The position numbers and the translations under genes were made by a program. Shown piece by piece: positions 2,035-40,714 of a stretch of 43,721 nucleotides of DNA. Source of the DNA: a virus; the IMG/VR virus record IMGVR_UViG_3300035146_000036, one strand, 5' to 3'. The notes under the pieces are model-generated. The model was not told where the DNA came from. It worked only from the letters and a program-made list of their open reading frames with translations, and made no database searches. Every line of letters starts with the position of its first letter. Position 1 is the first letter of the stretch.

Positions 2035-2068
2035 CTAAAAAAATTTTTAAAAAAGATCGCTCAAGATG

Positions 2069-2097
2069 TTGACAAACGGTTTTGGGTGAGGTAGGCT
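2069..2097 (+). promoter_or_regulatory. sigma70-like promoter (TTGACAAAC -35, -10 TAGGCT)
   Basis: TTGACA at 2069-2074, 17-nt spacer, TAGGCT. Confidence 0.45.
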
Positions 2098-2111
2098 TTT
2101 AGTATCAGATG

Positions 2112-2128
2112 GCCAGCAAGATGTTGGC
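2112..2128 (+). promoter_or_regulatory. 5'-UTR hairpin with AGA loop (gccagca-AGA-tgttggc) upstream of SD
   Basis: One of six covarying hairpins with conserved CA-AGA-TG core, placed 5-15 nt before the SD. Confidence 0.5.
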
Positions 2129-2147
2129 ATAGACAAGGAGAAACAAA

Positions 2148-2474
2148 ATGAAATTTGTAAATTTGACACCGCATGTGATTATGTTAGAAACTGAATTTGG
2201 AAGACTGGAACTTAAAAGTTCTGGTTTTGCCAGATCTTCAATGATTATTGAAGATTTGGAGCCAATGGGCGATTCAGTAACGGGTCGTATTATGAGAAAA
2301 AGAGTGAAGTACGGTCCAGTGGAAGGATTGCCTGATCCAGAAGATGGTACGATTTATATCGTGTCAAGGCTAACTAAACAGCAGATTCCGAATCGTTCTG
2401 ATTGTTTAGTTCCTGAGGATCCGATCAGGGATGAAGAAGGAAATGTGATAGGTTGTCGTGCCTTGGCCGATTAG
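2148..2474 (+). CDS. hypothetical protein, paralog A (108 aa)
   Basis: Clear ORF with RBS; ~70% aa identity to 2949..3284. Confidence 0.7.
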   Translation: MKFVNLTPHVIMLETEFGRLELKSSGFARSSMIIEDLEPMGDSVTGRIMRKRVKYGPVEGLPDPEDGTIYIVSRLTKQQIPNRSDCLVPEDPIRDEEGNVIGCRALAD

Positions 2475-2507
2475 GTTGGGTTGGTTAGAAAATAAGACAA
2501 AATATGT

Positions 2508-2522
2508 CAAACAAGATGTTTG
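2508..2522 (+). promoter_or_regulatory. 5'-UTR hairpin caaaca-AGA-tgtttg
   Basis: Covarying stem, AGA loop, directly before SD ggaggg. Confidence 0.5.
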
Positions 2523-2531
2523 GAGGGAAAA

Positions 2532-2882
2532 ATGTCTAGAAAAGAAATGGTTGAGATTTTGACAAAGAATGGTATTAAAGCTTCTCTTAAGGATAGTACT
2601 ATTCGTCTCGAGAAAAAGATGGAGAAATGTAAGATTCTTGATAGATATGCAGCTATTATGGAATCTTCTATGGAATCTTCTTCTGTTGAAAAAAGAAGGT
2701 TAGAAAAAGTAGGGAAAGACTTGAGGAGAGTTTCTGACGGAAAAGTCAGAAAAGTATTCAAAAGGATTTCAAGACGTATTGCCAAAAATGGTAGGTCGTC
2801 TGTATCTAGATGGATGGAAGAAATTTTGTCTGCAACATCACCGTTTGATGCTGCAGTGAAATATGTTCAAAAAAGTTGTTGA
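2532..2882 (+). CDS. hypothetical basic protein (116 aa)
   Basis: ATG 2532 preceded by ggaggg. Its 3' end is duplicated as a remnant at 3297-3373. Confidence 0.6.
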   Translation: MSRKEMVEILTKNGIKASLKDSTIRLEKKMEKCKILDRYAAIMESSMESSSVEKRRLEKVGKDLRRVSDGKVRKVFKRISRRIAKNGRSSVSRWMEEILSATSPFDAAVKYVQKSC

Positions 2883-2909
2883 CAAACTTAAAGAAATGAC
2901 GTTAGTATT
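2880..2909 (+). promoter_or_regulatory. sigma70-like promoter TTGACAAAC-N18-TAGTAT
   Basis: Sequence match; overlaps the stop codon of the upstream gene. Confidence 0.5.
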
Positions 2910-2920
2910 ACTGTAGATGG

Positions 2921-2937
2921 TCGGCAAGATGCCGATA
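2921..2937 (+). promoter_or_regulatory. 5'-UTR hairpin gtcggca-AGA-tgccgat
   Basis: 7-bp stem with AGA loop, 2 nt before SD aggagg. Confidence 0.5.
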
Positions 2938-2948
2938 AGGAGGTAAAA

Positions 2949-3284
2949 ATGAAGTTTGTAAATTTGACGCCAGATGTAATTAGACTTGAAACGGAATTTG
3001 GTGTAATAAAGATAGAGAGTTCTGGATATGCCAGAACATCAATAATTGTTGAAGATTTGGATCCAATTGATGACCCATTAATGGGTTATATTATGAGAAA
3101 GAGAATTAAACATGGTCCAGTAGAAGGGTTGCCTGGACCAGAAAATGGCACGATTTATATCGTATTAAGATCAACTAAACAACATATTTCAAATCGTTCG
3201 GATTGCCTTGTGCCTGAATATGAGCTATTTCCTATTAGGGATGAAGATGGTAATGTAATAGGTTGTCGCGCATTGGCTGATTAG
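2949..3284 (+). CDS. hypothetical protein, paralog B (111 aa)
   Basis: Tandem paralog of 2148..2474. Confidence 0.7.
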   Translation: MKFVNLTPDVIRLETEFGVIKIESSGYARTSIIVEDLDPIDDPLMGYIMRKRIKHGPVEGLPGPENGTIYIVLRSTKQHISNRSDCLVPEYELFPIRDEDGNVIGCRALAD

Positions 3285-3296
3285 TGATTAGGTTAA

Positions 3297-3373
3297 ATAA
3301 GATGTTTGGAAGAAATTTTGTCTGCAACTTCTCCTTTTGATGATGCAGTGAAATATGTTGAAAAAAGTTGTTG
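3297..3373 (+). pseudogene. 3'-terminal remnant of the 2532..2882 gene (internal deletion in second duplicate)
   Basis: ~90% nt identity to 2815-2890. The leader hairpin core aagatgtttgga is fused directly to the gene's 3' end. Confidence 0.55.
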
Positions 3374-3399
3374 ACAAACTATTTTTAGTGAGTTAGTAT
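3371..3399 (+). promoter_or_regulatory. sigma70-like promoter TTGACAAAC-N17-TAGTAT
   Basis: Exact -35 and a good -10. Confidence 0.55.
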
Positions 3400-3420
3400 A
3401 GTAGATGTAAACAAAAGATG

Positions 3421-3437
3421 CCTAACAAGATGTTAGG
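3421..3437 (+). promoter_or_regulatory. 5'-UTR hairpin cctaaca-AGA-tgttagg
   Basis: Perfect 7-bp stem, AGA loop, abutting SD aggagg. Confidence 0.55.
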
Positions 3438-3448
3438 AGGAGGAAACA

Positions 3449-3922
3449 ATGAACAACATAGAGACTTTGGCAATGAGTAAGGCTGTAACGAAAAAAGTTG
3501 TTGATGCTTCAAGAAAGAATGTTACCGCAGGAAAATATCATGTCGATATGACAGTGAGAGTTAGGGGTGACCTATCTGTTGGAGAAGATACGGAAACTAC
3601 CCCAACAGCTTCATTGTTGTCTGTTGATTTTCTCCTCTTGGCTTTTCACGCTGCTGGAATAACCAGGAAAGCAGCTATGAAGGCTATCGGTAATGTGGCT
3701 GATGGTTATCTTGTTAATTGGACTGGATCTAAAGAAGATAAAGAAAAGGCAAAAGAGGCACGTCAAGAGGCTCTTGATTCTTATGACCCAGATGGAAAGA
3801 TGAAAGAACTTTTTTCGCGGTTCAAGGATGACCTGCCGAAGGTACCGAAAAAAGGGTCTGTGAAATTCAAAGGGGAAGTTGAGGAGATTTTTCAGGAAGC
3901 TCTTATCAAGGCTGTTGGGTAA
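3449..3922 (+). CDS. hypothetical protein (157 aa)
   Basis: ORF with strong SD. Confidence 0.65.
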   Translation: MNNIETLAMSKAVTKKVVDASRKNVTAGKYHVDMTVRVRGDLSVGEDTETTPTASLLSVDFLLLAFHAAGITRKAAMKAIGNVADGYLVNWTGSKEDKEKAKEARQEALDSYDPDGKMKELFSRFKDDLPKVPKKGSVKFKGEVEEIFQEALIKAVG

Positions 3923-4002
3923 TCAAAGTTGACTTGATGAAGAAGATTTTATCCTATAAGATTAGAATTTATTCAAATAACAAAGCGATTAGGGAGGATA
4001 TT

Positions 4003-4422
4003 ATGAGTTGTTATATCTGTGATCCAAACATGTTTTCCTATGTTGCTAGTGTAATTTTCGATATGGCTAATGGGAAAATAACTAGAAATGATGCAGTAAA
4101 CATCGGTCGTGTTTTATATAGAGAAAATTGCATGTCTTTTATCTATAGATATCCAAGTGCTAAAGATGAGGTAAATCCTGATTTTCCTATTGTGAATGAA
4201 AATGATATCGTATCTGTAGATTTATATTCTGATGAAATAATGGATGCGATAAAATGTTTGGAATATCAGAGTTGTGAGCATCCTGATTGGGAGAAATCTT
4301 TTTCAAAAAAGGTTTTGGATTCTATTCGAAAAGCAATAATAGGATTGCCTAAAAGTGGATATGCAACATGGGGAGTTCCAGAAACTTTTGTTTCATATAA
4401 TGAAAATAGTATAGATATATGA
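4003..4422 (+). CDS. hypothetical protein (139 aa)
   Basis: ATG 4003 with SD agggagg at 3991-3997. Confidence 0.6.
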   Translation: MSCYICDPNMFSYVASVIFDMANGKITRNDAVNIGRVLYRENCMSFIYRYPSAKDEVNPDFPIVNENDIVSVDLYSDEIMDAIKCLEYQSCEHPDWEKSFSKKVLDSIRKAIIGLPKSGYATWGVPETFVSYNENSIDI

Positions 4423-4445
4423 GAAATAAAAATTAAGAGGTAAAA

Positions 4446-5093
4446 ATGAGTTATGATGATATGCGGTCTTCTGTTCCAGAGGGGGTTTCTGGAAATTGGG
4501 AGGTGAAAAAATTCAGTGTGTCGAAAGAAGATGCTGAATTTAATATGATGAGGTCAATATATAGTTTTTCTAGTAGCGGTAGGTATGTTCCTGAAGGACA
4601 ATATACAGGATTATATGTCAATGGACAGGTCATGATGTCTGATACCCCAGATGAACTTAGTGACCATTACCAACCTCTTTCTGTTGCTTCTGGCATATGT
4701 TTAGTGTCGGGTCTTGGATTGGGCTGTGTTGTTGAGGGAATGCTTAAGAAGCGAGATAGCCAAGGGAGATTGGCGGTTGATAAAGTGATCGTTCTGGAGA
4801 AGAGTAAAGATGTTTTGAATCTTGTAGAATCTCATTTCGTAGACAGATACGGAGATAGAATTGAAGTGAGAAACGTAGATGCTATTGAATATATGCCACC
4901 GCGTGAAGAAAGGTACGATGTTGTGTGGCACGATATTTGGTTGCATTTATGTGAGGATAATTTAGAGGAAATGACTCTCCTGCACAGGAGATATGGAAGA
5001 AAAGCTGACTGGCAAGGGAGTTGGGGAAGAGAGGTCTTGAAAAGGAGAAGGCAGAAAAACAGAAGAAATGATAGAAGAGGATTCTTTTTTTAA
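4446..5093 (+). CDS. putative class-I SAM-dependent methyltransferase-fold protein with basic C-terminal tail
   Basis: ICLVSGLGLGCV (motif I-like), VIVLEKSKD (acidic end of beta2); Arg/Lys-rich C terminus. Confidence 0.4.
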   Translation: MSYDDMRSSVPEGVSGNWEVKKFSVSKEDAEFNMMRSIYSFSSSGRYVPEGQYTGLYVNGQVMMSDTPDELSDHYQPLSVASGICLVSGLGLGCVVEGMLKKRDSQGRLAVDKVIVLEKSKDVLNLVESHFVDRYGDRIEVRNVDAIEYMPPREERYDVVWHDIWLHLCEDNLEEMTLLHRRYGRKADWQGSWGREVLKRRRQKNRRNDRRGFFF

Positions 5094-5113
5094 AAAAAAG
5101 TAGGTTTTAAGGA

Positions 5114-5142
5114 TTGACAAATTTTTTGGAATGATGATAATG
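5114..5142 (+). promoter_or_regulatory. sigma70-like promoter TTGACAAAT-N17-gATAAT
   Basis: Sequence match; would drive the tRNA-like / Y-RNA-like cluster and possibly rsr. Confidence 0.45.
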
Positions 5143-5179
5143 GAATCAGTTGTTGAGGAGAGGACTGCTAAGGTAGTTC

Positions 5180-5252
5180 AGAAAAATAGCTCATTAGGTA
5201 GAGCGATAGATAGAGGATCTATAGGTAACAGGTTCAATTCCTGTTTTTTCTT
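5180..5252 (+). ncRNA. aberrant tRNA-like RNA (perfect acceptor, D and T arms; anticodon loop UAGAGGA lacks U33)
   Basis: agaaaaa/tttttct acceptor, gctc/gagc D stem, ataga/tctat anticodon stem, acagg-ttcaatt-cctgt T arm. Confidence 0.4.
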
Positions 5253-5286
5253 CCCACACTACTTTTACTACTATCTCTCCTCAATA

Positions 5287-5319
5287 TTTTATCGCTTCAA
5301 AAGAAGCGTGGATTGAAAC
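5287..5319 (+). repeat. solitary CRISPR-repeat-like unit 1: hairpin (cgcttc-aaaa-gaagcg) + TGGATTGAAAC
   Basis: Shares TATCG-hairpin-TGGATTGAAAC architecture with 8445-8479 and 16377-16413. Confidence 0.45.
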
Positions 5320-5327
5320 AAAAAAGA

Positions 5328-5474
5328 TGACATCGAGGACTAAATAGACGGTTCAGCTAGTGGATTTCTAATCCGCAGGTTATAGGTTCGAATCCTATTT
5401 TGTGTACCATATTCGCACAAGTAGCTCAAAGGTAGAGCAGCGTTAGTTTTCGTTTATTGAAATATCTCGATGTT
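5328..5474 (+). ncRNA. candidate Y RNA (YrlA-like): circularly permuted tRNA-like module enclosed by a long-range stem
   Basis: The 3' half of a tRNA (anticodon arm gtgga-UUUCUAA-tccgc, T arm atagg-ttcgaat-cctat, acceptor tttgtgt, A, CCA) at 5359-5409 is followed, after a 5-nt linker, by a 5' half (gcacaag-ta-gctc-aaaggta-gagc) at 5415-5438. Flanks 5330-5343 and 5443-5473 are complementary. Confidence 0.4.
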
Positions 5475-5510
5475 ATTTTTATAAGTATACTGGGAACTGA
5501 ATAGACAGTT

Positions 5511-5583
5511 CAGGATATAGAGCAATTGGTAGCTCATCGGCTTTGCACGCCGAAAGTCGTTGGTTCAAATCCAACTATCTTTC
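5511..5583 (+). tRNA. tRNA-Ala (UGC)-like (G3:U70 present, C1:U72 mismatch)
   Basis: D arm gagc-aattggta-gctc, anticodon stem tcggc/gccga with loop UUUGCAC, T arm gttgg-ttcaaat-ccaac. Confidence 0.55.
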
Positions 5584-5737
5584 ACGAACACTGTTTGTTA
5601 AAATATCCCAGTTTTTTCACTTCTGATTCCGAGAACTATACAGACATTTCAGGCAAGTATGCAAGTATGGTTGATAGTGTTTGTTAAACTGTCTCGGGTT
5701 TTTTTATTCTGGGACAATAATAACCAGGAGGTGTGTG

Positions 5738-7408
5738 ATGAATAGCATTACACGGATAGATGATGTTTGGTCGATAGTTGGAGTTGAGCCTGTTAGAATA
5801 GCGGATGATGTTTGTGCTTTTTTGGATGTGAGTACTACATCTTTTGGTAGGGCGACACATTATAATAGTCGTGAGAAGCAGTTGCATACTGAAGCAGCGG
5901 TTCATGGTCGTCTTTTTGATATATCGAGAGATTTGTATCAAATTTTGTTGTCATTACCAGGTACTACAGATAGAGCAAGACAAATAGGGATGTCTGCTTT
6001 GTTAGGAAGTAAACAGAAGAATGGCAAAGAATGTCTTTTGACTGGTACTATGGAACGAAGGGTTCTCGAGAGTTTTGTTAAGAGTTTACCTCCCCAAAGG
6101 ATGTTGAAATTATTTGATGCTTTTCGTGGATTCGGGAATGAGTTTGGAGCGAAAAAGTCAAATAATGCTCGAACAAGAAAACTTATTTTGAGGACTATTT
6201 TGAATAGTCCACGGTTAGAATTATGGACGATAAAATATCGTTCAAAATTGCAGAGAATTTTATCTCATGCATGGGGAAGAAGTCTCGGTTCTGCTATTGG
6301 TGCTGTAGCTGCCAAAAAGAGACGTAATGACAAAGAAAAATCTATGCTTAAAAAGCATGTTTTGAGTTATTTGGGTAGTAATTGTGGAAAAGTTGAAGTT
6401 GTAAATTTAAACCATGTTTTACAGTGTATTGCGTTTTTGTACGGGGAAAGAGACCGGATAAGTGATGACATGAAACTGTTGCAAAGTTTCATTAATGCAA
6501 AAACAAATATTTCTGATGGTTTGAAATTGCCGGCAGAGATAATTGAAGGAATAAGAAGCACTTATCATAAAAATGTTAGTGCATCAGAATTATTGAAGAT
6601 GCGTGCCGATGTAGGAGGTATAAGAACTCGTTACGAGAAAAGGGTAGTGCAGAAAAGGGTGAAAGAAGTTGGTGGAAAAGTAGAGATGAATCCACTGGAT
6701 TATGATGCAGTAGAACTTTATATCTATGCTTTTGAGGTTGGAGCAGATAGTGAAATACTTGAAGCATTAGATAAAAAAGCCAAAGATGCTGCAAAATTGT
6801 TGCCTGTTAGTTATGATAAGCTTGCAATTATTGTAGATGCATCGAAATCCATGGAAGGGAGCAAAGAGCAACCGATGAGACCGTTGGCAACTGCACTCTC
6901 TATTAGAGATATGTTGCAGAGGTCAGCAATTGAGTCAACGGTTTTGTATTGTGGTGGATTTGCAGATACTAAAGATATGCCGGATATATCTTCTAAGATA
7001 AAGATAGTAAAACCATCGTATGAAACAGAATTGGCTCAATCATTGTTAGATGCTTTGGTTTATGAACCTGATGCAGTATATGTGATTAGTGATGGATATG
7101 AAAATTCTCCTGCTGGACGATTTGGAGATGTTCTTAGAAAGGCTCGAGAAATAGGTATAGATGTTCCTGTAATCCATTGTAATCCTGTATTTGCATCTGA
7201 GACGGGTTCGGTTAGGGCATTGTGTGAAGGGATAGAGAAGGTTACTACATTGCCTGTGAGAAGTCCTATGGCAATGGGGTCTGGTATTATTCGTGGATTA
7301 ATAGAATCAGACCCGAGACGTGGATTGAACAGTATATTAAGGATTGCTTTGACTGGTGATTCTCCGTTGGCTGGATTGCTGACAGAGGGAGATGGAGGTG
7401 TGTCATGA
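5738..7408 (+). CDS. rsr: Ro60/Rsr-like protein (helical TROVE-like N-terminal region + C-terminal vWA domain with MIDAS)
   Basis: vWA MIDAS motifs LAIIVDASKSM ... SDGYEN, aligning with Ro60 LLAIDVSASM ... TDCETN; helical ~350-aa N-terminal region; SD aggagg before ATG 5738. Confidence 0.5.
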   Translation: MNSITRIDDVWSIVGVEPVRIADDVCAFLDVSTTSFGRATHYNSREKQLHTEAAVHGRLFDISRDLYQILLSLPGTTDRARQIGMSALLGSKQKNGKECLLTGTMERRVLESFVKSLPPQRMLKLFDAFRGFGNEFGAKKSNNARTRKLILRTILNSPRLELWTIKYRSKLQRILSHAWGRSLGSAIGAVAAKKRRNDKEKSMLKKHVLSYLGSNCGKVEVVNLNHVLQCIAFLYGERDRISDDMKLLQSFINAKTNISDGLKLPAEIIEGIRSTYHKNVSASELLKMRADVGGIRTRYEKRVVQKRVKEVGGKVEMNPLDYDAVELYIYAFEVGADSEILEALDKKAKDAAKLLPVSYDKLAIIVDASKSMEGSKEQPMRPLATALSIRDMLQRSAIESTVLYCGGFADTKDMPDISSKIKIVKPSYETELAQSLLDALVYEPDAVYVISDGYENSPAGRFGDVLRKAREIGIDVPVIHCNPVFASETGSVRALCEGIEKVTTLPVRSPMAMGSGIIRGLIESDPRRGLNSILRIALTGDSPLAGLLTEGDGGVS

Positions 7409-8412
7409 GTAGAAACATATCGATGGAAGACATCCTTTTTGGGATAGGTGCAGGAAGAGCACAATCGGTAGGAAATATGGAGGTTATTCCTTTGATTTCT
7501 GAAGATCGTGACGAGATAATTGATGAAAGTATGTATGGGACTCCTGCAGATGTGGAGATAGGTACTCGGAATTATGGCGAAGTTGATATGAGGAATGTTT
7601 CTGACCGAGTGAATTTTGTTCCTCCTGGTGCTGGTTGGGTTGTTAAAGAAGCTGCTCAAGACCATGCTATAGGAAGTGGAGAGATTCTTGGTCCAAAGAC
7701 ATCAAATCTTGTGAAGACTGCAAGATGTATTCAGTCTAATCAGGGTGGAACTATTTCGAAAGCAGCTCATGAGATGCTTGTTTTGCCAGTTGAACTTCGT
7801 GGTATTGCTTTAGCTAAAAGAAATATGCATGGATATAGTGAGATGTGGGATGATCTTGCTAATTTTAATTCTCAACATGGTATTCAAGGGTTTAAAGAAC
7901 TTGCTATTTTCTTGCAGGAATTTAAGCGACAAATGGATCAATTTGTTGCTGAGTTTGAGTTGGTACCAAATCAAATAGGAGCAGTGATTATTATAAATGG
8001 TAAAGTTATCGGTATTGAAATTGCTCCTACAAGAGATTATTGGCAATATGTTTGGACACCTTTGATTAGGGTATGTTATGGGTCTTTGGCATCTGAGTGT
8101 TATAAGAGGTCAAGTGTGGACCATAGAAATATACCTATTTCGAATAGGGATCCATTAGAGCTTGTTGAAAATACACTTTCTGGATTACGGGATGCTGTTT
8201 TGAAAACTGACCAGGATAGGATAGATGCTGTTAACGTTTTTGTTTCTTCTCTAAAAAAGAAGAAATTTTTGGTTGGTAATGTAGAACAGAATAGGAGTGA
8301 CCATTATTTATTATCTGGTTTGATACGTCCAGATCGTGAAAATGGACAGATTGAAGGTCAGATTGTTGTTACAGAAAAGACTATTCCGTTCTTTTCTGCT
8401 TGTGGTGTTTGA
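7405..8412 (+). CDS. hypothetical protein (335 aa), translationally coupled to the rsr-like gene
   Basis: ATGA overlap with upstream stop; no recognised motif. Confidence 0.65.
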   Translation: MSRNISMEDILFGIGAGRAQSVGNMEVIPLISEDRDEIIDESMYGTPADVEIGTRNYGEVDMRNVSDRVNFVPPGAGWVVKEAAQDHAIGSGEILGPKTSNLVKTARCIQSNQGGTISKAAHEMLVLPVELRGIALAKRNMHGYSEMWDDLANFNSQHGIQGFKELAIFLQEFKRQMDQFVAEFELVPNQIGAVIIINGKVIGIEIAPTRDYWQYVWTPLIRVCYGSLASECYKRSSVDHRNIPISNRDPLELVENTLSGLRDAVLKTDQDRIDAVNVFVSSLKKKKFLVGNVEQNRSDHYLLSGLIRPDRENGQIEGQIVVTEKTIPFFSACGV

Positions 8413-8444
8413 CAAAAATAATTTTTAAATTATTGTTATTATAA

Positions 8445-8479
8445 GTTATCGACCTATTAAATAGGTTGTGGATTGAAAC
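8445..8479 (+). repeat. solitary CRISPR-repeat-like unit 2: GTTATCGACCTATTAAATAGGTTGTGGATTGAAAC
   Basis: 35-nt unit starting GTT, 8-bp hairpin, ending ATTGAAAC. Confidence 0.45.
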
Positions 8480-8494
8480 GATTACCTTTCATGG

Positions 8495-8526
8495 AATGGG
8501 GCTGTTTTTCAGTCCCATTTTTTTAT
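8495..8526 (+). terminator. rho-independent terminator
   Basis: atggggctg-ttttt-cagtcccat stem followed by an 8-T tract. Confidence 0.8.
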
Positions 8527-8694
8527 TTAAACAGTTTTGTATTTTTGGTTATTTTTTACATAAATTGTATTTAATATGTAGTTTTTAATTTATATAACAT
8601 ATTAAAAATATTTATGTTTTTGTTTTTTTGGGGTTGAAATATCTATCGATTATGATACTATAGATTATCAATTTTCAACAAAAGGAGTAGTAAG

Positions 8695-9618
8695 ATGGGA
8701 ATGACACATTTGAATGTTTATTTTAGGAATAGTTTATGTAAACTATTGACAAATTGTTGGATGGCAGATTTAGTTGTTAATTCTTGTGATGGAACACCAT
8801 TATATGATGTATTTCCAGAAATAATTGATCAATTGAAAGATCGATATGCAAAGTCAGCAACTGTTACTGAATTTACTAATTTTCCGTTATCAACAGATCA
8901 AAGTGGGTTAACACTAGAAGTTACTGTTGATGGTGGTACTATGCAGACGCGTACTTTTTCAAGTCCTGCTATGACACTTGCTGAGATTTATGGTCAGATA
9001 AAAGGTTATTTCACAGATTGTGATATAATATTGGATGATAATGACCATATATCCATTGTTACGAAAAATAAAGGTCCTAATGCCAATTTAGTAATTGGTG
9101 GAACTTGTAATTTAGATTGGGGGCCAGTTACGCAAGGATCTGGTTATGATATTAGTACGCGATATTATATGGATGCTTATAGAATAAACATAAGACCACT
9201 TGTTGGGGAATATATTAATCATATTGAGATGGATATTCCGAATGGATGTTACAAGATTTGGTCAAGGTGTTGTTTTGGAGATAATGAGGAAACTTCTGTT
9301 GTGATGTTGCCAATTGAAGATTGTGGTGGATGTCGTACAGTAAATTTATTACTTCCTCAAGTTACGACTTGTTCTAAGTATGTATTGCATCCGATGATAG
9401 ATAGGATTGTGAATGATTATCAGGCAGTATTTCCATTAGATGCTGATAAGGTTACAATATTAAAGGCAATTGCCTATACTGGTGGATTAGGTAGGGAAGG
9501 GATTCTTGAACAGTTAAATATTAGAAAACAAGATGCTATTAATATTGAGAGGACTGATTTAGAGGCAAGAGTTGATGCTGTTATTACGATAGCACAACAG
9601 CTTCCACAATGTTGTTAA
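8695..9618 (+). CDS. hypothetical protein (307 aa), Cys-containing
   Basis: ORF with SD aaggag 6 nt upstream. Confidence 0.7.
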   Translation: MGMTHLNVYFRNSLCKLLTNCWMADLVVNSCDGTPLYDVFPEIIDQLKDRYAKSATVTEFTNFPLSTDQSGLTLEVTVDGGTMQTRTFSSPAMTLAEIYGQIKGYFTDCDIILDDNDHISIVTKNKGPNANLVIGGTCNLDWGPVTQGSGYDISTRYYMDAYRINIRPLVGEYINHIEMDIPNGCYKIWSRCCFGDNEETSVVMLPIEDCGGCRTVNLLLPQVTTCSKYVLHPMIDRIVNDYQAVFPLDADKVTILKAIAYTGGLGREGILEQLNIRKQDAINIERTDLEARVDAVITIAQQLPQCC

Positions 9619-9719
9619 TGAATGATTGAATGATTTTTTTGCTTGACAAAGAATAATTTGTCAATTATCTTTTGTGTGTGTCCATAGAAGTTCATACTTC
9701 TTGTTTCGTCATTTTGGTT

Positions 9720-9752
9720 TAGGGGCTGGGAAACCAGCCCCGATTTTTACTA
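9720..9752 (+). terminator. rho-independent terminator
   Basis: ggggctgg-gaaa-ccagcccc followed by gattttt. Confidence 0.75.
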
Positions 9753-9958
9753 GGAAAAAGTTATGAAACGACATGATAAAAACAGGATTAATAATGTAGT
9801 AAAAACAAAAGGTATTGTTTTGTCCTGTATCCTCTCTTTATCATTTTTCTTTTCATATTTGAGTTGGTAATTCTAGTCGGTTGACCGACAGAATTATTTT
9901 ACCATGTAGTTCTTGTACATGGGTAGATTGTTCATTGACAATAGAATAGTCCATAATT

Positions 9959-10045
9959 TGAGGTATGACAGAGTGGTAATGTGCTCGCCTGGAAAGCGTT
10001 GGCCATCTAGAGATAGGTGCGGGGGTTCAATTCCCTCTGCCTCAG
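9959..10045 (+). tRNA. tRNA-Ser (GGA)-like, type II, weak anticodon stem
   Basis: Acceptor tgaggta/tgcctca, D stem aca/tgt, loop CUGGAAA, long variable arm, T arm ggggg-ttcaatt-ccctc. Confidence 0.5.
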
Positions 10046-10051
10046 AAATCA

Positions 10052-10139
10052 GGAAGGTAACCGGCTGGATCAGGAGCATGTTTTGAAAACATGTGGCGCA
10101 TTGAGAGATGCGTTATGGGTTCGAGTCCCATACCTTCCT
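10052..10139 (+). tRNA. tRNA-Ser (UGA)
   Basis: Acceptor ggaaggt/accttcc, anticodon stem catgt/acatg with loop UUUGAAA, variable hairpin cgcat/atgcg, T arm atggg-ttcgagt-cccat. Confidence 0.8.
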
Positions 10140-10164
10140 CTAAATGACATCTAGATGATAGGTG

Positions 10165-10178
10165 TGAACTCGAGTTCG
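10165..10178. promoter_or_regulatory. palindrome tGAACTCGAGTTCG (copy 2, 13/14)
   Basis: 13 nt upstream of ATG 10191. Confidence 0.55.
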
Positions 10179-10190
10179 TTTGGAGGTGAA

Positions 10191-10370
10191 ATGTTAAGAA
10201 AAGATGAAGGATATGATGAAGTTAGTAAAGCATTAGATATGTATGAGGATGATATAAGTATGTTTGATGCTAGAGATGAAAGGGTTGAAAAGGAAATTGA
10301 TAAGCTTTTGGACGGAATTAATTTAGAACAATCGCTTAAGAATTTTGTAAGAATGTTTATTGGTGATTAG
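10191..10370 (+). CDS. hypothetical acidic small protein (59 aa)
   Basis: ATG 10191 with SD ggagg. Confidence 0.5.
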   Translation: MLRKDEGYDEVSKALDMYEDDISMFDARDERVEKEIDKLLDGINLEQSLKNFVRMFIGD

Positions 10371-10458
10371 GAGGATTGGCGGAAAGGTATCGCAGCGGAT
10401 TCGAAATCCGTAGTCATCGAAAGATATCGGTGTGAGAGTTCGAATCTCTCATCCTCCT
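10370..10458 (+). tRNA. tRNA-Ser (CGA)
   Basis: Acceptor ggaggat/atcctcc, D stem gcg/cgc, anticodon stem gcgga/tccgt with loop UUCGAAA, long variable arm, T arm gagag-ttcgaat-ctctc. Confidence 0.8.
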
Positions 10459-10536
10459 CTGTTTGTTGTTAATCTAATATCAACAAAGTAGTTTGTGTTG
10501 CAAAAAACGAGATTTGTGAGCAACAAAATGTATTAA

Positions 10537-10624
10537 GGGAAGTATTAATAAGGCTAGATGGTCTGGCAGAAGATTGTAAATCTTTTCCTCTAGTAGGCAT
10601 GTGGTTCGATTCCATCGCTTCCCA
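10537..10624 (+). tRNA. tRNA-Tyr (GUA)-like with enlarged D region
   Basis: Acceptor gggaagt/gcttccc, anticodon stem gaaga/tcttt with loop UUGUAAA. The D region is ~6 nt too long. Confidence 0.45.
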
Positions 10625-10628
10625 ATAT

Positions 10629-10711
10629 GGAAGGTTACGTTCAAGGGTAAACGGGAAGATTGCTAATCTTCTGTCATTCGTGGCTTACAGGTTCGAATCC
10701 TGTACCTTCCG
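10629..10711 (+). tRNA. tRNA-Ser (GCU)
   Basis: Acceptor ggaaggt/accttcc, D stem cgt/acg, anticodon stem gaaga/tcttc with loop UUGCUAA, 15-nt variable arm, T arm acagg-ttcgaat-cctgt. Confidence 0.8.
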
Positions 10712-10769
10712 CAAGTTTTTGTGATAGTATCTTTTTGAGAAAAATGAAATTTCAGAAAGGTATAAAATT

Positions 10770-10943
10770 ATGAAAGAGATTCTTGAACGATTAGAGAGAA
10801 AAATTGGTTTGGGTCCTGGTGGTAAATGTAAATGTCCTGAATGTGGTGAAGAAGTAAAACATGAAACTGGTGTATCATGTGATAGTATAAAATGTTCTAA
10901 ATGTGGGACTAGCATGAGAAGAGTTGTTAGAGAAGAAGAATAA
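10770..10943 (+). CDS. small zinc-ribbon protein (57 aa; CxC/CxxC ... CxxC), not in supplied ORF track
   Basis: ATG 10770 to TAA 10943, read by hand between tRNAs. Confidence 0.4.
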   Translation: MKEILERLERKIGLGPGGKCKCPECGEEVKHETGVSCDSIKCSKCGTSMRRVVREEE

Positions 10944-10953
10944 GGGTTAATAC

Positions 10954-11038
10954 GGGACGGTGGCGGAAATAGGTAGACGCAAGGGACTTAAAATCCCTCG
11001 GGGGAAACCTCATACGAGTTCGATCCTCGTCCGTCCTA
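10954..11038 (+). tRNA. tRNA-Leu (UAA)
   Basis: Acceptor gggacgg/ccgtcct, D stem gcg/cgc, anticodon stem aggga/tccct with loop CUUAAAA, long variable arm, T arm acgag-ttcgatc-ctcgt. Confidence 0.8.
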
Positions 11039-11044
11039 CAATAT

Positions 11045-11132
11045 GCCCGTGTAGTCGAATTTGGTATAGACGGTGGATTCAAAATCCATGGCAACTGAAA
11101 AGTCATTCTCGGTTCGAGTCCGAGCACGGGTA
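11045..11132 (+). tRNA. tRNA-Leu (CAA)
   Basis: Acceptor gcccgtg/cacgggt, D stem gtc/gac, anticodon stem gtgga/tccat with loop UUCAAAA, 18-nt variable arm, T arm ctcgg-ttcgagt-ccgag. Confidence 0.8.
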
Positions 11133-11139
11133 CTATAAT

Positions 11140-11211
11140 GGAACGGTAACTCAGTAGGTAGAGTGCTGGACTGAAAATCCAGATGCGACAGTTCGATTCT
11201 GTCCTGTTCCA
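11140..11211 (+). tRNA. tRNA-Phe (GAA)
   Basis: Acceptor ggaacgg/ctgttcc, D stem actc/gagt, anticodon stem ctgga/tccag with loop CUGAAAA, T arm gacag-ttcgatt-ctgtc. Confidence 0.85.
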
Positions 11212-11230
11212 CTAAAAATTATGGACTATT

Positions 11231-11479
11231 TTATGATAGGTCAATTTTTATCCATTTGTTGATGAGATTTTGATAAGTATCTGCAAATGGGCTTGATAAT
11301 TTTTTCAGTATTGATGGAATTTCTTCCCAGTTTGTTGTTGGAAGGATAGTAGATATTCCAAGGAGACCTTCGATTTCAACAAGATCATCTGTTGATTTTG
11401 ATTCAAATATTAGGTCATCTATAATAGTTAGGTCTTCTATTAAGTCATTTATTGGTTTGTTTTCATTGATTAGATTCAT
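11231..11479 (-). CDS. hypothetical acidic protein (82 aa)
   Basis: Minus-strand ORF; no motif. Confidence 0.5.
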   Translation of the reverse strand: MNLINENKPINDLIEDLTIIDDLIFESKSTDDLVEIEGLLGISTILPTTNWEEIPSILKKLSSPFADTYQNLINKWIKIDLS

Positions 11480-11483
11480 TTTT

Positions 11484-11714
11484 TTACCTTATTAATTGAT
11501 AAATAGTAGAAATTCTGTTTTGTTTCATTTTAATTCCAGTTATATAGCCTTTGATTGTTCTTTCTATTTGTCCTATTTCATTGTCATGAAATTTTGATTC
11601 ATGAGCAATTGATATTAATCTTTCTAGTAAATTTGAAATTTCATTAAATGAGAAATCTATTTCATTTCTTTTTTCTGATATTTCTTCGATGAGTTCATTT
11701 CTATTAGTTATCAT
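11484..11714 (-). CDS. hypothetical protein (76 aa)
   Basis: Start moved to the ATG after SD aaaaagga. The leader hairpin ctcaaca-AGA-tgttgag (11731-11747, minus) lies just upstream. Confidence 0.5.
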   Translation of the reverse strand: MITNRNELIEEISEKRNEIDFSFNEISNLLERLISIAHESKFHDNEIGQIERTIKGYITGIKMKQNRISTIYQLIR

Positions 11715-11826
11715 TTTTATTATCCTTTTTCTCAACATCTTGTTGAGTATCTACTTTGATTTTAAGACATTAAAAATGGTTTGTCAACTTTTTTATGCGA
11801 ACTCGATATTCTTTTTCTTTTTATTA

Positions 11827-11970
11827 TTACCAATATTTAGCCCCTTTGAGGTTAGCCCCTTTGAGGTTGTACCCTTCGAGGTATGTTCCAAAGAAATCGA
11901 TATCACGCAATTCTCCTTGCGAACAATATAGAATTTCATTCGTTATTGGATGCTTTTTAAACATATTCAT
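11827..11970 (-). CDS. candidate small protein (47 aa) with tandem NLKGA repeats
   Basis: Read by hand. ATGA overlap with the stop of 11967..12260; covers three 15-bp direct repeats. Confidence 0.3.
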   Translation of the reverse strand: MNMFKKHPITNEILYCSQGELRDIDFFGTYLEGYNLKGANLKGAKYW

Positions 11971-12260
11971 TTTTTGCTTCCTTTGTTATAATTAAAACAG
12001 ATATGGATAAGAGGGTTATAATCATATGCCCATCTTGGGATAATTGTTCCACAAGTAGCACAGAAAACATCAGCTGCTTCTCTGGCTTCCTCAGAAGAGC
12101 AGAATTTGTTTTCGCACTTATGATTACAGTAATTTTGTTTTTTTTCTCCATGTTTATTGAATTTGCACTCGTCAACTTTTTTTGATGTGCATATCCATTC
12201 CCATTCATGTTGAAATTGCATGTAATTATGGATAAATAGTTTGCAGTGATTTGGTTTCAT
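11967..12260 (-). CDS. Cys-rich hypothetical protein (97 aa)
   Basis: ATG 12260. Its 5' UTR on the minus strand carries two AACAAGATGT motifs including hairpin cgaaca-AGA-tgttcg (12267-12281). Confidence 0.6.
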   Translation of the reverse strand: MKPNHCKLFIHNYMQFQHEWEWICTSKKVDECKFNKHGEKKQNYCNHKCENKFCSSEEAREAADVFCATCGTIIPRWAYDYNPLIHICFNYNKGSKK

Positions 12261-12346
12261 TTTATGTGCCTTTCTTCGAACATCTTGTTCGACATCTTGT
12301 TATTAATGATAATACTTTTTGAGTGATTTGCAACAAAAAAAATGTG

Positions 12347-12375
12347 TTGACAAATTTTTTTATCGTTGTTAGATA
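12347..12375 (+). promoter_or_regulatory. sigma70-like promoter TTGACAAAT-N17-TAGATA
   Basis: The -10 ends 5 nt before ATG 12381, suggesting a leaderless transcript. Confidence 0.5.
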
Positions 12376-12380
12376 TATAT

Positions 12381-13274
12381 ATGATTGATTCATGTCTTGA
12401 CACGGGTGATGAAAATCATTGGGGTATACGGAAAGGAGATATTTTGAAATTTGGGGCAGTTTTTATAGATTTTGAAAATTTGTATTTGTCTTTGAAGCAT
12501 AAATACAAAGAACACGATATTTTATTTGTGAAAATAGTAGAAGCTGTTATAGATAGACTTGAAAATGACCTTGAATCCACTGTCGTTGTAAGAAGAAATT
12601 ACTTACCATTTGGTGCTCATGATTATGCTACTATGGCAGATGAACTTGCGTTAGATGGGTTTAAGTCAGTACATGTTCTTGCAGAATTATCGAAAAATTC
12701 AGCAGATTTAGTGCTTGCTGTTGATGCTATGGAAACAGTTTATACACGTGATAATATTGAGGTTTTTTGTATTATTGGGGGTGATAGAGATTATATTCCA
12801 GTAGTAGCGAAATTGAAAGAGCTTGGTAAACATTGTATAGTGTGTTCTATGCCTGATTCTATGTCTGGAGATCTTCTTAGATTTATAGGTGAAGATTTAT
12901 ATTTTAATCCTATTGAAATGGTAGAATGTGTATTAGTGGTTGACAGGAAAAGTTGTTCAAAGAAAGAATCTATATCAAAAAAGATAGATGATGAAGAGGT
13001 TGAACGATGGAAGTCTTTTGCTAAAGTTGCACATGATATGAGAGAAAAATATGACAATCCTGAAATATGGATGGCTCCGTATATCACATTGTTGTCAGAA
13101 AGATTTCCTAACTTAGCTAGAAAAGACATTCGTGACACAATTGCTAGTATGGAGAAGTGTGGTATATGGCATAGAGAGGAGAGAGAATCAGATAGAGCGA
13201 ATATTAGTTCATATTCTGTTTTGATAGTAGACTGGAATCATTCATTAATACAGGAAACGTTGATGATTGAATAA
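12381..13274 (+). CDS. NYN-domain (LabA-like PIN) ribonuclease-like protein with C-terminal OST-HTH/LOTUS-like region
   Basis: GAVFIDFENL ... LVLAVDAMET ... FCIIGGDRDYIPVV motifs of NYN domains; no SD upstream. Confidence 0.6.
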   Translation: MIDSCLDTGDENHWGIRKGDILKFGAVFIDFENLYLSLKHKYKEHDILFVKIVEAVIDRLENDLESTVVVRRNYLPFGAHDYATMADELALDGFKSVHVLAELSKNSADLVLAVDAMETVYTRDNIEVFCIIGGDRDYIPVVAKLKELGKHCIVCSMPDSMSGDLLRFIGEDLYFNPIEMVECVLVVDRKSCSKKESISKKIDDEEVERWKSFAKVAHDMREKYDNPEIWMAPYITLLSERFPNLARKDIRDTIASMEKCGIWHREERESDRANISSYSVLIVDWNHSLIQETLMIE

Positions 13275-13281
13275 TTTACAG

Positions 13282-13310
13282 TTGACAAATTTGTTTTTGA
13301 TGGTTAATAA
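13282..13310 (+). promoter_or_regulatory. sigma70-like promoter TTGACAAAT-N17-TAATAA
   Basis: Sequence match. Confidence 0.5.
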
Positions 13311-13362
13311 AAATATAGAGTGATTTCCTGGGAGATCCAGGATGAGAAGGAGGAGAATGAAA

Positions 13363-13563
13363 ATGGTTAAGGTAAAATATTTTAGAATTGATACGAGAGA
13401 AGATTCCAAATATTGTGGTTATGAGATTATTAGTAGAGAAGGAGAATTTGAATTTTGGACCAATGATGACAGGATAGCTTTTGAAGAAAAGATAGAGACT
13501 GCTTTTAGGCAATGTTTGGGTAGTGACCTTGAAGTTTGTGCTGTAGGGATAAAACGAAGTTAA
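13363..13563 (+). CDS. hypothetical protein (66 aa)
   Basis: ATG 13363 follows SD aggagga. Confidence 0.5.
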   Translation: MVKVKYFRIDTREDSKYCGYEIISREGEFEFWTNDDRIAFEEKIETAFRQCLGSDLEVCAVGIKRS

Positions 13564-13579
13564 AAGTGATTTAAGAAAA

Positions 13580-13593
13580 CGAACTCGAGTTCG
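13580..13593. promoter_or_regulatory. palindrome CGAACTCGAGTTCG (copy 3)
   Basis: Perfect copy, 19 nt upstream of ATG 13612. Confidence 0.6.
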
Positions 13594-13611
13594 TAAAATA
13601 AGGATAATATA

Positions 13612-14193
13612 ATGGAATATAAAAATGGAGATTTTCGTGTTTGGTGGATACCACAGGTTCCTATGGAGGCTTTTTATGTATATGTTCAGTCTTTAGTTGA
13701 AGCGAAGAAGATTTTAACTGTTTTGGCTGATTATGACATGTTTCAGTATAATAATAATGTTAAACCAGATTATTGTAATGTAGGAGGTCTTCAAATATAT
13801 GAGGAAGGGGAATGGTTTGATTGGGAATCTGAAGATGGTGAATCTATAGATAAGTTAAGTATTTTTGAACTTGAAAGACTTAATGCTTGTGTATGTGAAT
13901 ATGATAATATTCCTGATGCTATTTTGTTAGCTATTAATAATCATGTTTTAAGAGGACAACATTGTGGTCATTTTGTTACGGCTGTACTCAGTAATGATTT
14001 GATAGAAGCAGTTAATAGGGCTGATGATGAATGTCAGAAGTGTTTACGGTCAATTGTTAGATATTTATATAATAGATGTCCAGGTGGGTGTTGGGGATCA
14101 AAAAAGGAGATGGAAGAATGGAGGAAAAATGGTGGAACAGAAGGAAAGGAAGTTGGAGATATAGGAGGTTTGATTTATCCAAGAGGGATTTGA
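13612..14193 (+). CDS. hypothetical Cys-rich protein (193 aa)
   Basis: ORF. Confidence 0.6.
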   Translation: MEYKNGDFRVWWIPQVPMEAFYVYVQSLVEAKKILTVLADYDMFQYNNNVKPDYCNVGGLQIYEEGEWFDWESEDGESIDKLSIFELERLNACVCEYDNIPDAILLAINNHVLRGQHCGHFVTAVLSNDLIEAVNRADDECQKCLRSIVRYLYNRCPGGCWGSKKEMEEWRKNGGTEGKEVGDIGGLIYPRGI

Positions 14194-17323: not shown

Positions 17324-17656
17324 ATGAAACTTCCAGCAACAGTACCAACTTTAGTTTCTGTAGAAAGCTCTAATGTTGAAGCGGTTGGATATGATCCAAA
17401 GAAGAGATATTTGTATATTCAATTTTTGCCTAGTGAGAAAGGTCAACGTAGTACAGTATATAGATATTCGAATGTACAAGAGCAAATTTATAATAGGTTT
17501 TTGAGAGCCCCTAGTAAGGGTATGTTTGTATGGGCAAATATACGGGATAAGTATCCATATGCTAAATGGACTGGATTTGGTTGGAGAAAAGAAACTGCAT
17601 TGAAGAGGATGTCTACTCAGAAGAAAAGTAGAAAGCAATATTGGCGAAAAAGATAA
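17324..17656 (+). CDS. KTSC-domain protein
   Basis: SSNVEAVGYDP...LYIQF...VYRYSNV...FL.A.SKG motifs of KTSC (PF13619). Confidence 0.6.
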   Translation: MKLPATVPTLVSVESSNVEAVGYDPKKRYLYIQFLPSEKGQRSTVYRYSNVQEQIYNRFLRAPSKGMFVWANIRDKYPYAKWTGFGWRKETALKRMSTQKKSRKQYWRKR

Positions 17657-17696
17657 TTAGTTGGATGCTAATTAGGAAAGATGAAAAGGTTGAAAA

Positions 17697-21146: not shown

Positions 21147-21371
21147 TTTTGTTGTTTTGGTTATCTATTAAATAGATACTTTGCGGGATGCAAGTCGAAG
21201 TATATGTGTTTTGGAAAGATTGAAATGTTGTTAAAATGAAAGATGATAATTGGATACGTGGATTTGATGGTAAAATATTAGTGCCAAATAGTAGGGACTT
21301 TTCATTTCAATTTAGAATAGTGATAGGTCTTATTATTTTTTTTATACTGGTATGGTTAACAAGTGGGTAAA

Positions 21372-25784: not shown

Positions 25785-26111
25785 ATGGGTAAAAATTTAG
25801 GTAAAATTGATCCATTGGTAATAGATGCTATTCGTGAAGTAGTAATGCTTGTTCGTCATTTTGTAAATCATCCAGAGGAGGTTCAGGTTGATATAGAGAG
25901 TAATGGTTATAGTGCTCTTGTGGCTTTAAGAACACATCCTAAAGATGTTGGTCAGGTTATTGGTAGGAATGCTCATTTAGTTAATTCTATTCGTTCATTT
26001 TTGTCTGCAATTCAAGGTAAAAATAAAATACAAATTATTATGGATTATGTTACGGATGAAGATAAGCGTAGAGAATATGAAAAAGGAAATTATCTAAAAC
26101 GTATGGGTTGA
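25785..26111 (+). CDS. KH-domain RNA-binding protein (KhpA/UPF0109-like)
   Basis: VGQVIGRNAHLVNSIRSFL resembles the KH GxxG region; ATG 25785. Confidence 0.5.
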   Translation: MGKNLGKIDPLVIDAIREVVMLVRHFVNHPEEVQVDIESNGYSALVALRTHPKDVGQVIGRNAHLVNSIRSFLSAIQGKNKIQIIMDYVTDEDKRREYEKGNYLKRMG

Positions 26112-40600: not shown

Positions 40601-40629
40601 TTGACAAACGCTGTTATTGCCTTAAAATT
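40601..40629 (+). promoter_or_regulatory. sigma70-like promoter TTGACAAAC-N16-TAAAAT
   Basis: Sequence match. Confidence 0.45.
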
Positions 40630-40714
40630 AATTAAGATGGCTTGCAAGATGCAAGATTTTTTTAAAATGTTGGTTTTCATGTAAGAAAATATTTTTAATA
40701 AAGAGGGTAATAAA

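Follow-up and report, generated by a model that had tools for sequence, protein, structure and literature searches.

The window analysed here, the whole 43,721-nucleotide stretch of IMG/VR virus record IMGVR_UViG_3300035146_000036, covers the early and replication region in a large phage whose guanine-plus-cytosine (GC) content is 33%. Within it, a small hairpin recurs next to the Shine-Dalgarno (SD) sequence of early genes, and this hairpin is the subject of our analysis. The phage belongs to a lineage of ~160-kb phages met in metagenomes only, for which same-lineage contigs span up to 118-170 kb. The window encodes 16 transfer RNA (tRNA) genes, DnaB, a UvsX-like recombinase, DNA methyltransferases, an RNA ligase, and KH-domain and NYN-domain proteins. 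In same-lineage contigs, a sigma factor and a CCA-adding enzyme are encoded just beyond its 3' end and, in at least one strain, a type I-C CRISPR-Cas (clustered regularly interspaced short palindromic repeats) locus lies 5' of it. A nucleotide search of INPHARED found no cultured relative, nor did tblastn with DnaB, which returned distant phages only, at less than 30% identity. Strain variants and relatives, cited below by L numbers, were retrieved via exact-protein look-ups.

A hairpin motif in the leaders of early genes

The element is a 22-nt RNA motif. It consists of a 5'-AGAU(G/A) pentamer (AGAUR below), a 7-bp stem whose sequence is free apart from the closing (C/U)A...U(G/A), and an invariant AGA triloop, so that AGAU is present twice, in the flank and at the apex. 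At least 10 copies are found per genome, in front of at least 10 small early genes. An initial annotation had reported six of these hairpins between positions 2112 and 12281, each adjacent to the SD of a gene. All six are present where it placed them and with the sequences it gave; they end 8-19 nt short of a start codon, and the SD follows at once or overlaps the last 2-3 nt of the stem. The range given, however, ends too early and cuts the last hairpin, which reaches 12292. A seventh full copy, several divergent or decayed copies, the AGAT(G/A) pentamer 5' of the stem and a sigma70-like promoter before most copies had been missed. AGAT(G/A) stands directly 5' of all good stems, once as ATATG, and chance hairpins within coding regions do not have it.

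A covariance-model scan of the whole window returns seven strong members (26-35 bits, E 1e-5 to 1e-8) that stand apart from the background. Four lie on the plus strand between 2069 and 3451; promoters and start sites given here are consensus predictions. Cassette 1 (2069..2150) comprises a -35 box TTGACA (2069-2074), a -10 box TAGGCT (2092-2097, or TAGTAT at 2100-2105), AGATG (2107-2111) and the hairpin GCCAGCA-AGA-TGTTGGC (2112-2128; 33.1 bits, -9.5 kcal/mol), followed by the SD AAGGAG (2135-2140) and the ATG at 2148 of a Crn4b-like gene (2148-2474). Cassette 2 (2502..2534) is intercistronic and has no promoter. Here, ATATG (2502-2506) and the hairpin TCAAACA-AGA-TGTTTGG (2507-2523; 28.9 bits), whose 3' arm is overlapped by the SD GGAGGG, precede the ATG at 2532 of a gene for a 116-aa basic protein (2532-2882). 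In cassette 3 (2879..2951), the -35 box (2879-2884), the -10 box TAGTAT (2903-2908), AGATG (2915-2919), the hairpin GTCGGCA-AGA-TGCCGAT (2920-2936; 31.3 bits, fold z -3.5) and the SD AAGGAGG (2937-2943) lead to the ATG at 2949 of a second Crn4-like paralog (2949-3284). Cassette 4 (3371..3451) has its -35 box at 3371-3376, its -10 box TAGTAT at 3394-3399, AGATG at both 3403-3407 and 3416-3420, and the hairpin CCTAACA-AGA-TGTTAGG (3421-3437; 35.4 bits) before the SD AGGAGG and the ATG at 3449 of a gene for a 157-aa protein.

Two further cassettes are on the minus strand. Cassette 5 (11712..11787) runs from TTGACA (11787-11782) through TAAAAT (11764-11759), AGATA (11752-11748) and the hairpin CTCAACA-AGA-TGTTGAG (11747-11731; 34.3 bits) to the SD AAAGGA and an ATG at 11714. 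Cassette 6 (12258..12333) has the boxes TTGCAA (12333-12328) and TATCAT (12311-12306), AGATG (12297-12293), the hairpin TCGAACA-AGA-TGTTCGA (12292-12276; 35.3 bits), the SD AGAAAGG and an ATG at 12260; it is divergent from the NYN-domain gene (12366-13274). Cassette 7 (40601..40663, plus strand) is atypical, with a -35 box (40601-40606), a -10 box TAAAAT (40623-40628), AGATG (40635-40639) and a 6-bp hairpin, GCTTGCA-AGA-TGCAAGA (40640-40656; covariance match 40635-40660, 26.3 bits).

Around these members lie weaker ones, all on the plus strand. A subclass that is also found in L140, L141 and L142 is represented at 13282..13365 by a promoter (TTGACA at 13282, with TAATAA), the hairpin TCCTGGG-AGA-TCCAGGA (13326-13342; GGG-AGA-UCC with a closing G·U, no AGAUR, 14.4 bits), the SD AAGGAGG and an ATG at 13363. 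The degenerate copy TTAAATA-AGA-TGTTTGG (3293-3309; 17.6 bits) has neither AGAUR nor SD. At 21174..21195, AGATA and CTTTGCG-GGA-TGCAAGT (hairpin 21179-21195) form a decayed copy, which is the sole one with an altered loop (GGA) and has also lost promoter and SD; L140 and L142 have at this place an intact cassette, TTGACA...AGATA CTTTGCA-AGA-TGCAAGG AGGTG. A 4-bp look-alike, ACCA-AGA-TGGT (764-774), in the leader of gene 822-1193 after a promoter at 691-718, is a doubtful member. Rfam recovers tRNAs alone at the gathering score, and nothing relevant at E<=5 in 2050-3470.

Most copies are preceded by a promoter-like TTGACA(AAC)-N16-18-TAnnAT (TTGACAAAC-N16-18-TAnnAT), often with an upstream A-rich tract. 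In 11 of the 16 promoter-linked cassettes the -10 box ends 5-9 nt before AGAUR, which would place the stem at about +6 to +22 of the transcript. The initial annotation had taken the element to be transcribed and, as far as this can be followed from predictions, every predicted promoter does lie upstream of its hairpin. In the leaders of the 157-aa gene the promoter gap is 14-20 nt, and two copies (2507-2523 and L149 9072) are without a promoter. AGAUR stays at the stem where the promoter is 14-20 nt farther off (cassette 4, L143, L145) as well as where it is missing. Because the pentamer tracks the stem regardless of promoter distance or absence, we consider it part of the RNA motif and not a start site. 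Downstream, a strong SD is found within 0-6 nt of the 3' end of the stem in 17 of 18 distinct cassettes, but not in 40640-40656. A promoter of the AR9 type (AACA-N6-TW) was rejected as a coincidence, with only two of the seven copies fitting. A leader-peptide reading of two in-frame ATGs was likewise dropped, because ATA replaces the first in several copies and the second in L012, and because neither lengths nor stops are constant.

Pairing on the sense transcript and conservation in relatives

The abundance of the element excludes chance. CAAGATG occurs 21 times in the window against 6.9 expected, a three-fold excess (0/100 shuffles), and hairpins with an A-AGA-U apex and at least 7 pairs occur nine times against 1.05 expected (0/300 dinucleotide shuffles). 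Among 21 distinct copies, 99.3% of cells are paired and double changes are seen in six of the seven pairs. Covariation is 1.0 compared with 0.31 in shuffles and at most 0.18 with partners slid, which beats all 500 shuffles and all slid registers, and RNAalifold gives the same helix. A13, G14, A15 and U16 are invariant in these copies and A12 is present in 19 of 21, while stem positions vary freely. The compensatory changes invoked by the initial annotation are real, but its comparison between paralogous copies was circular, these having been chosen for complementarity. We therefore drew independent support from orthologous leaders and from model matches that had not been built in.

Orthologous leaders keep their complementarity with changed stems, down to 53% protein identity; loss of pairing there had been named at the outset as an argument against the structure. 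Before the 157-aa gene, the stem arms are CCTAACA/TGTTAGG in the window, CCCAATA/TATTGGG in L012, CTCAACA/TGTTGAG in L143 and L146, and GCCAAAA/TTTTGGC in L145, whose protein marks that lower bound and whose GC content is 46%. The AGA loop and AGAUR are kept in all five. A second ortholog series has the arms CTGAGCA/TGCTTAG, ATCAGCA/TGCTGAT and GCTGATA/TATCAGC. Outside its building set, covariance model R2 matches L145 9961 (E 1.4e-5), L146 3401, L149 9072, 9765 and 12299, and L150 9167. The L149 and L150 copies lie just past the window, with L149 12299 preceding the gene for the CCA-adding enzyme.

Wider searches added little. The IMG/VR relatives found by DnaB (L001-L003) had little to say about the motif; three AGA hairpins in L003 exceed the 0.45 expected (4/300 shuffles) and were not counted as members, since a model built without them gives E about 0.8. 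An IMG/VR scan for the pattern AGATG-N5-CAAGATG-N5-17-GGAG yielded at least 120 matches that were essentially random, and among the matches listed stem pairing was at chance level. IMG/VR protein scans with the Crn4-like and NYN proteins gave no matches.

The stems contain 13 G·U wobbles and no A·C pair, in genes on both DNA strands, which assigns the structure to the sense transcript and speaks against a DNA cruciform or template-strand hairpin. The element is a sense-strand RNA structure in the 5' leader of a gene set. The hairpin forms in predicted folds, at -4 to -10 kcal/mol, and the minimum-free-energy structures have the SD unpaired.

It is accordingly most improbable that the element acts at the level of DNA, whether as a hairpin promoter of the N4 type used by a phage RNA polymerase, as a cruciform or recombination site, or as an operator bound by a protein. 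The design does resemble the promoters of the N4 virion RNA polymerase (vRNAP), which are template-strand DNA hairpins with a 5-7-bp stem, a 3-nt loop with a purine centre and a start 11 nt downstream (PMC4496689). Free stem bases, a conserved apex and a 3-nt loop are common to both, and gene swaps coincide with cassettes, as described below. However, on the template strand the 13 sense G·U pairs would turn into A·C mismatches and the loop would be TCT where N4 requires a purine centre, and initiation 11 nt from the middle of the loop would take place within or past the SD. Sigma70-type promoters lie upstream, the phage encodes a sigma factor and no visible vRNAP, and the mapped insertion boundary is a CGAGTTCGCAGAAAA repeat rather than the hairpin.

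The SAS (start-associated sequence) and ESAS (extended SAS) elements of Cluster K mycobacteriophages offer another comparison (PMC3203893). They too are repeated motifs at the translation starts of some non-structural genes, in one orientation, kept across subclusters and of unknown function. SAS is, however, a fixed 13-mer that contains the SD, and the ESAS arms are conserved in sequence with uncompensated changes, a DNA-binding protein having been proposed, whereas the free, compensating arms seen here indicate RNA. The motif, its pairing at the RNA level, its position, its conservation and the identities of the genes behind it are observed features of the lineage.

Genes behind the hairpin and a candidate RNA operator

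The protein encoded at 2148-2474 and its paralog (2949-3284) are similar to the CRISPR ring nuclease Crn4, with a profile E of 3.2e-20 to Crn4b 9r7b. An AlphaFold model of the Crn4b-like protein, with a predicted local distance difference test score (pLDDT) of 89, compares with 9r7b at a template-modelling score of 0.82 and a sequence identity of 34%. The NLTPH motif and the C-terminal Arg region IRD..G..G.R.L align with Crn4, including the conserved T, H and R (T13, H15 and R112 in Crn4a). The paralog 2949-3284 has NLTPD, with D for H, and is thus without the catalytic His. A third Crn4-like paralog stands behind a cassette in L005 (3237-). Judged from sequence and model, the two served genes of the window likely encode ring nucleases for cyclic oligoadenylates, directed against type III CRISPR or against the cyclic-oligonucleotide-based antiphage signalling system (CBASS). 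Phage Crn4b homologues have been proposed as anti-CRISPRs, which could also hit cA3-based CBASS (PMC12830947). The remaining cassette genes are ORFans without a family match. Because two of its members are Crn4b-like ring nucleases, the served class looks like one of early anti-defence or host-takeover genes, which is the best name for it.

Other possible counter-defence or exclusion genes occur near cassettes. They include YspA/cpYpsA-related SLOG, ARPP-1/ARPP-2, RyR and DUF4352 matches and a GP17 superinfection-exclusion domain, at 1521-1907, 7405-8412 and 13612-14193 in the window and at 6470-7929 in L004. The 575-aa and NYN proteins have no sequence relatives in the PDB.

Promoter spacers, stems and ATG spacing have drifted, but AGAUR and the (C/U)A-AGA-U(G/A) apex have not, which points to sequence-specific readout of an RNA whose stem just has to pair. 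By analogy with the 5' untranslated region (5'UTR) motifs of Aca1 and Aca2, we tentatively favour, at somewhat below an even chance, a role for the motif as an RNA operator, through which translation is blocked by a protein binding in trans. The initial annotation had likewise suggested a shared translational operator or, alternatively, an RNase site. Transcribed from strong early promoters of the host (sigma70-like) type, the hairpin would fall within the first ~25 nt of the leader; elsewhere it would lie between cistrons. An RNA-binding protein acting in trans would then read the fixed apex and the AGAUR flank, the variable stems needing only to pair. Bound beside the SD, it would keep the 30S subunit off, perhaps also changing mRNA lifetime, and the whole gene class could be shut down jointly when its products have reached a sufficient level. 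In this scheme we infer where transcription starts, that there is a binding factor and which protein it is, and in which direction it acts.

Aca2 and Aca1 have been described to bind covarying 5'UTR hairpins directly after the transcription start, also between genes, at several neighbouring anti-defence operons (bioRxiv 10.64898/2026.07.27.740549). The present element shares with the Aca motifs (Aca2; Aca1, Aca10, Aca12) a short covarying hairpin right after the predicted start of a strong early promoter and upstream of the ribosome-binding site (RBS) of anti-defence genes, including an intercistronic placement and occurrence at more than one neighbouring operon. Unlike in the Aca systems, there is here no recognisable Aca gene of the helix-turn-helix (HTH) or ribbon-helix-helix (RHH) type and no DNA inverted repeat over the promoter. 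The motif itself differs as well, being a single 7-bp stem with an AGA triloop and AGAUR, in front of genes for Crn4-type ring nucleases and ORFans in a ~160-kb phage. Elements of this kind, covarying hairpins that control early or anti-defence genes of phages from the leader and are carried in a portable promoter-SD cassette, are known. The novelty lies in the particular motif with its AGAU/AGA signature, in the lineage and in there being no recognisable Aca-type regulator.

The hairpins bound by CsrA and RsmE, for example that of hcnA with ..CA-CGGA-UG.., have the apex CA-NGGA-UG, and repress translation through a dimer on two sites. They too are short and lie beside or over the SD, with CA-AGA-UG being the apex found here. 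The two differ in that AGA fills a 3-nt loop in 21 of 21 members of our set, as opposed to GGA in a 4-6-nt loop; GGA occurs only in the decayed copy 21179-21195.

Three proteins of the window are candidates for the factor. By position, the first is the 116-aa basic protein (2532..2882, plus strand), encoded behind a Crn4-like gene and itself preceded by a hairpin. It has an N-terminal helix-extended-helix (pLDDT above 80) and an Arg-rich C-terminal helix that is conserved in relatives. The others are the KhpA/KhpB-type KH-domain protein (25785..26111, plus strand) and the NYN/LabA-type (PIN-like) putative RNase (12366..13274, plus strand), divergent from cassette 6. Such a non-HTH phage protein could read the two AGAUs at the SD and so time the anti-defence genes, with the 75-bp cassette as a plug-in socket for their exchange; that all of this forms one undescribed RNA regulon is rather unlikely as a specific proposal.

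Several observations weigh against an operator. No HTH or RHH regulator is found in the cassette operons by Pfam, NCBIfam or PHROGs, apart from a weak HTH_10 match (E 0.05) in 822-1193. The 116-aa candidate is named by position and composition only; it has no family match, and its whole model (pLDDT 65) has no fold match; this is a single-sequence prediction, too poor for a fold search. The GXXG of the KH protein is degenerate (GRNA). A generic promoter scan shows overall no enrichment over shuffles, and no shared inverted repeat is seen over the promoters, whose -35/-10 spacers differ among cassettes. Copy 40640-40656 is followed by a T7 run (40657-40663), and the next ATG, at 40715, is 51 nt away. 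Finally, L148, the most distant ortholog (47% identity), has AGAU and an 8-bp hairpin with a 6-nt AACGAA loop, and the window at 17650-17670 has a non-AGA hairpin at a locus where relatives have the AGA type, suggesting that a plain hairpin may suffice.

These other-loop hairpins at orthologous places bear on the main alternative, possible if on balance doubtful, in which the element is a factor-independent 5' stabiliser or SD insulator. A hairpin near the 5' end would block 5'-end-dependent decay (RNase E sensing, or RppH and RNase J1) and keep the SD free, giving strong early expression, and the apex would be inherited from a common ancestral cassette. Stabilisers of this type are established in ompA, aprE, the T7 phi10 leader and SP82. 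With the -10 spacing of the 11 cassettes given above the stem would start at about +6, and the SD is unpaired in predicted folds, as such a role would have it. What it leaves unexplained is the invariance of A-AGA-U and AGAUR amid stems that all vary, down to 53% protein identity, and the copies 14-20 nt from the predicted start (3421, L143, L145). The promoter-less or intercistronic copies (2507-2523; L149 9072) would need added processing, and the stems, at -4 to -10 kcal/mol, are weak.

Those same two copies would suit a processing site. The motif could be an endoribonuclease determinant, its AGAU being cut in the flank, the loop or both, either by the NYN/PIN-like nuclease of the phage or by an RNase of the host (E or Y type); we regard this as unlikely. 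Cleavage could mature a polycistronic early RNA into stable, hairpin-capped messages or, as with T4 RegB, inactivate early messages beside the SD. PIN-like nucleases such as VapC and Regnase-1 cut hairpin loops, and RNase Y sites need a downstream hairpin. The twofold presence of AGAU fits, as does the NYN-domain gene next to cassette 6, which is kept in relatives. That link, however, is one of adjacency alone, and L144, whose NYN protein is 64% identical, has no hairpins within its 7 kb.

The T run after copy 40640-40656 and the small Arg-rich protein encoded within the cluster recall signals that act on transcription. AGAUR as a linear box plus a hairpin just past early promoters has the look of boxA-boxB, and the element might then direct nut/put-like antitermination or promoter-proximal pausing of RNA polymerase from early promoters. 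We rate this as very unlikely: at least 10 copies per genome are each tied to an SD at 0-6 nt, a spacing that antitermination does not need, one copy is intercistronic, the loop is a triloop and not a purine pentaloop, and no boxA-like CGCTCTTA is present. By comparison, a lambda-type nut site combines boxA with a 5-nt purine-rich boxB loop and occurs once or twice per genome. Nor does the element resemble an intrinsic terminator, as an SD follows the hairpin, a T7 run is present only at 40640-40663, and the stems are AT-rich and not G+C-rich.

If the motif is an operator, the hairpin marks which unknown small genes of the lineage form one early co-regulated class. It could then serve, much like Aca sites, as a search handle for new anti-defence genes, and RNA-level control of such genes would reach beyond HTH Aca proteins. 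Even a passive hairpin would constitute a compact natural promoter-leader-RBS module with a variable stem.

Cassette exchange and further features of the lineage

Cassettes and genes are not in fixed association. The TCGAACA unit stands before three unrelated genes, one in the window, one in L140 and L005, and one in L142; conversely, the 157-aa gene has different cassettes across the series given above. In L143 the GCCAGCA cassette is joined straight to the 116-aa gene, with the ring-nuclease gene absent, and L005 and L012 are without the second ring-nuclease paralog. L149 has an extra 192-aa gene between two cassettes, and the mapped boundary there is the repeat CGAGTTCGCAGAAAA, half of a recurrent terminator-like palindrome, and not the hairpin. 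As a by-product, the ~75-bp promoter-hairpin-SD cassettes may act as portable expression units and recombination linkers, behind which genes are exchanged.

This arrangement is reminiscent of the PeSL (promoter early stem-loop) cassettes of T4-type phages (PMC2839356, PMC4122927), repeated units of ~75-100 bp that place an early sigma70-like promoter, a stem-loop and an SD before small ORFans. In both, cassettes mark insertion, deletion and replacement of small genes among close relatives. The PeSL stem-loop, however, is made of G/C tracts, acts as a terminator or attenuator and lies between or over the promoter hexamers, whereas the present hairpin lies downstream of the -10 box, within the leader. 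It also has a fixed loop, free AT-rich stems and no U run except 40657-40663. The terminator and boundary role seems to be taken here by the separate palindrome (CGAACTCGAGTTCG).

This palindrome, (A/G)CGAACTCGAGTTCG(T/C), is terminator-like and occurs at 1488-1503 and 13579-13594 in the window, at 3810 and 4346 in L004, and at ~9030 and ~9690 in L149. The direct repeat on either side of the gene insertion in L149, relative to L150, is made up of the 3' half of this palindrome and AGAAAA. The CTCAACA cassette is present twice, nearly identical and inverted, about 32 kb apart (11787-11731 on the minus strand, and about 150 nt past the window end on the plus strand, L150 9130-9200), a potential substrate for inversion. 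At 3290-3378, a 3' remnant of the 116-aa gene (3310-3378) is fused to the degenerate hairpin 3293-3309. This is the trace of a tandem duplication of the unit ring nuclease, hairpin, 116-aa gene and promoter, followed by internal deletion.

The CRISPR-Cas locus is found in L004 (1-4315), of the same lineage and about 4-8 kb 5' of the window start. It comprises type I-C cas5d, cas8c/csd1 and cas7 and two arrays with 12 repeats in total (..TCGCCCCCTTCATGGGGGCGTGGATTGAAAC). The repeat is found across many phyla and gives no host assignment. A tie between the AGA hairpin and the processing site of Cas5d in this repeat was discarded, the repeat hairpin CGCCCCC-TTCAT-GGGGGCG being unrelated. The nearest relatives by DnaB or the 157-aa protein (L001-L003, L145) have GC contents of 46-66% as against 33% in the window, so that the clade covers hosts of very different composition. 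Throughout the window, GC skew is positive and very strong (+0.2 to +0.5).

The load of RNA-related genes is unusual, comprising the KhpA-like KH protein (25785-26111), the NYN/LabA protein (12366-13274), the RNA ligase, the sigma factor, the CCA-adding enzyme and the 16 tRNAs; the loci concerned also include 41645-42274 and 37624-37995 in the window and 11608-12243 and 12330- in L149. The match of 37624-37995 is to an ASCH domain, weak and below cutoff, and a weak 17th tRNA at 5339-5406 comes from Rfam only. A distant relative, L148, encodes a Ro60/TROVE-vWA protein (3352-4452). Finally, two promoter-to-terminator units of about 70-110 nt without an open reading frame, at 8409-8525 and 9643-9745, have TTGACA promoters at 8409 and 9643 and strong terminators at 8493-8521 and 9722-9741, and are possible small RNAs.

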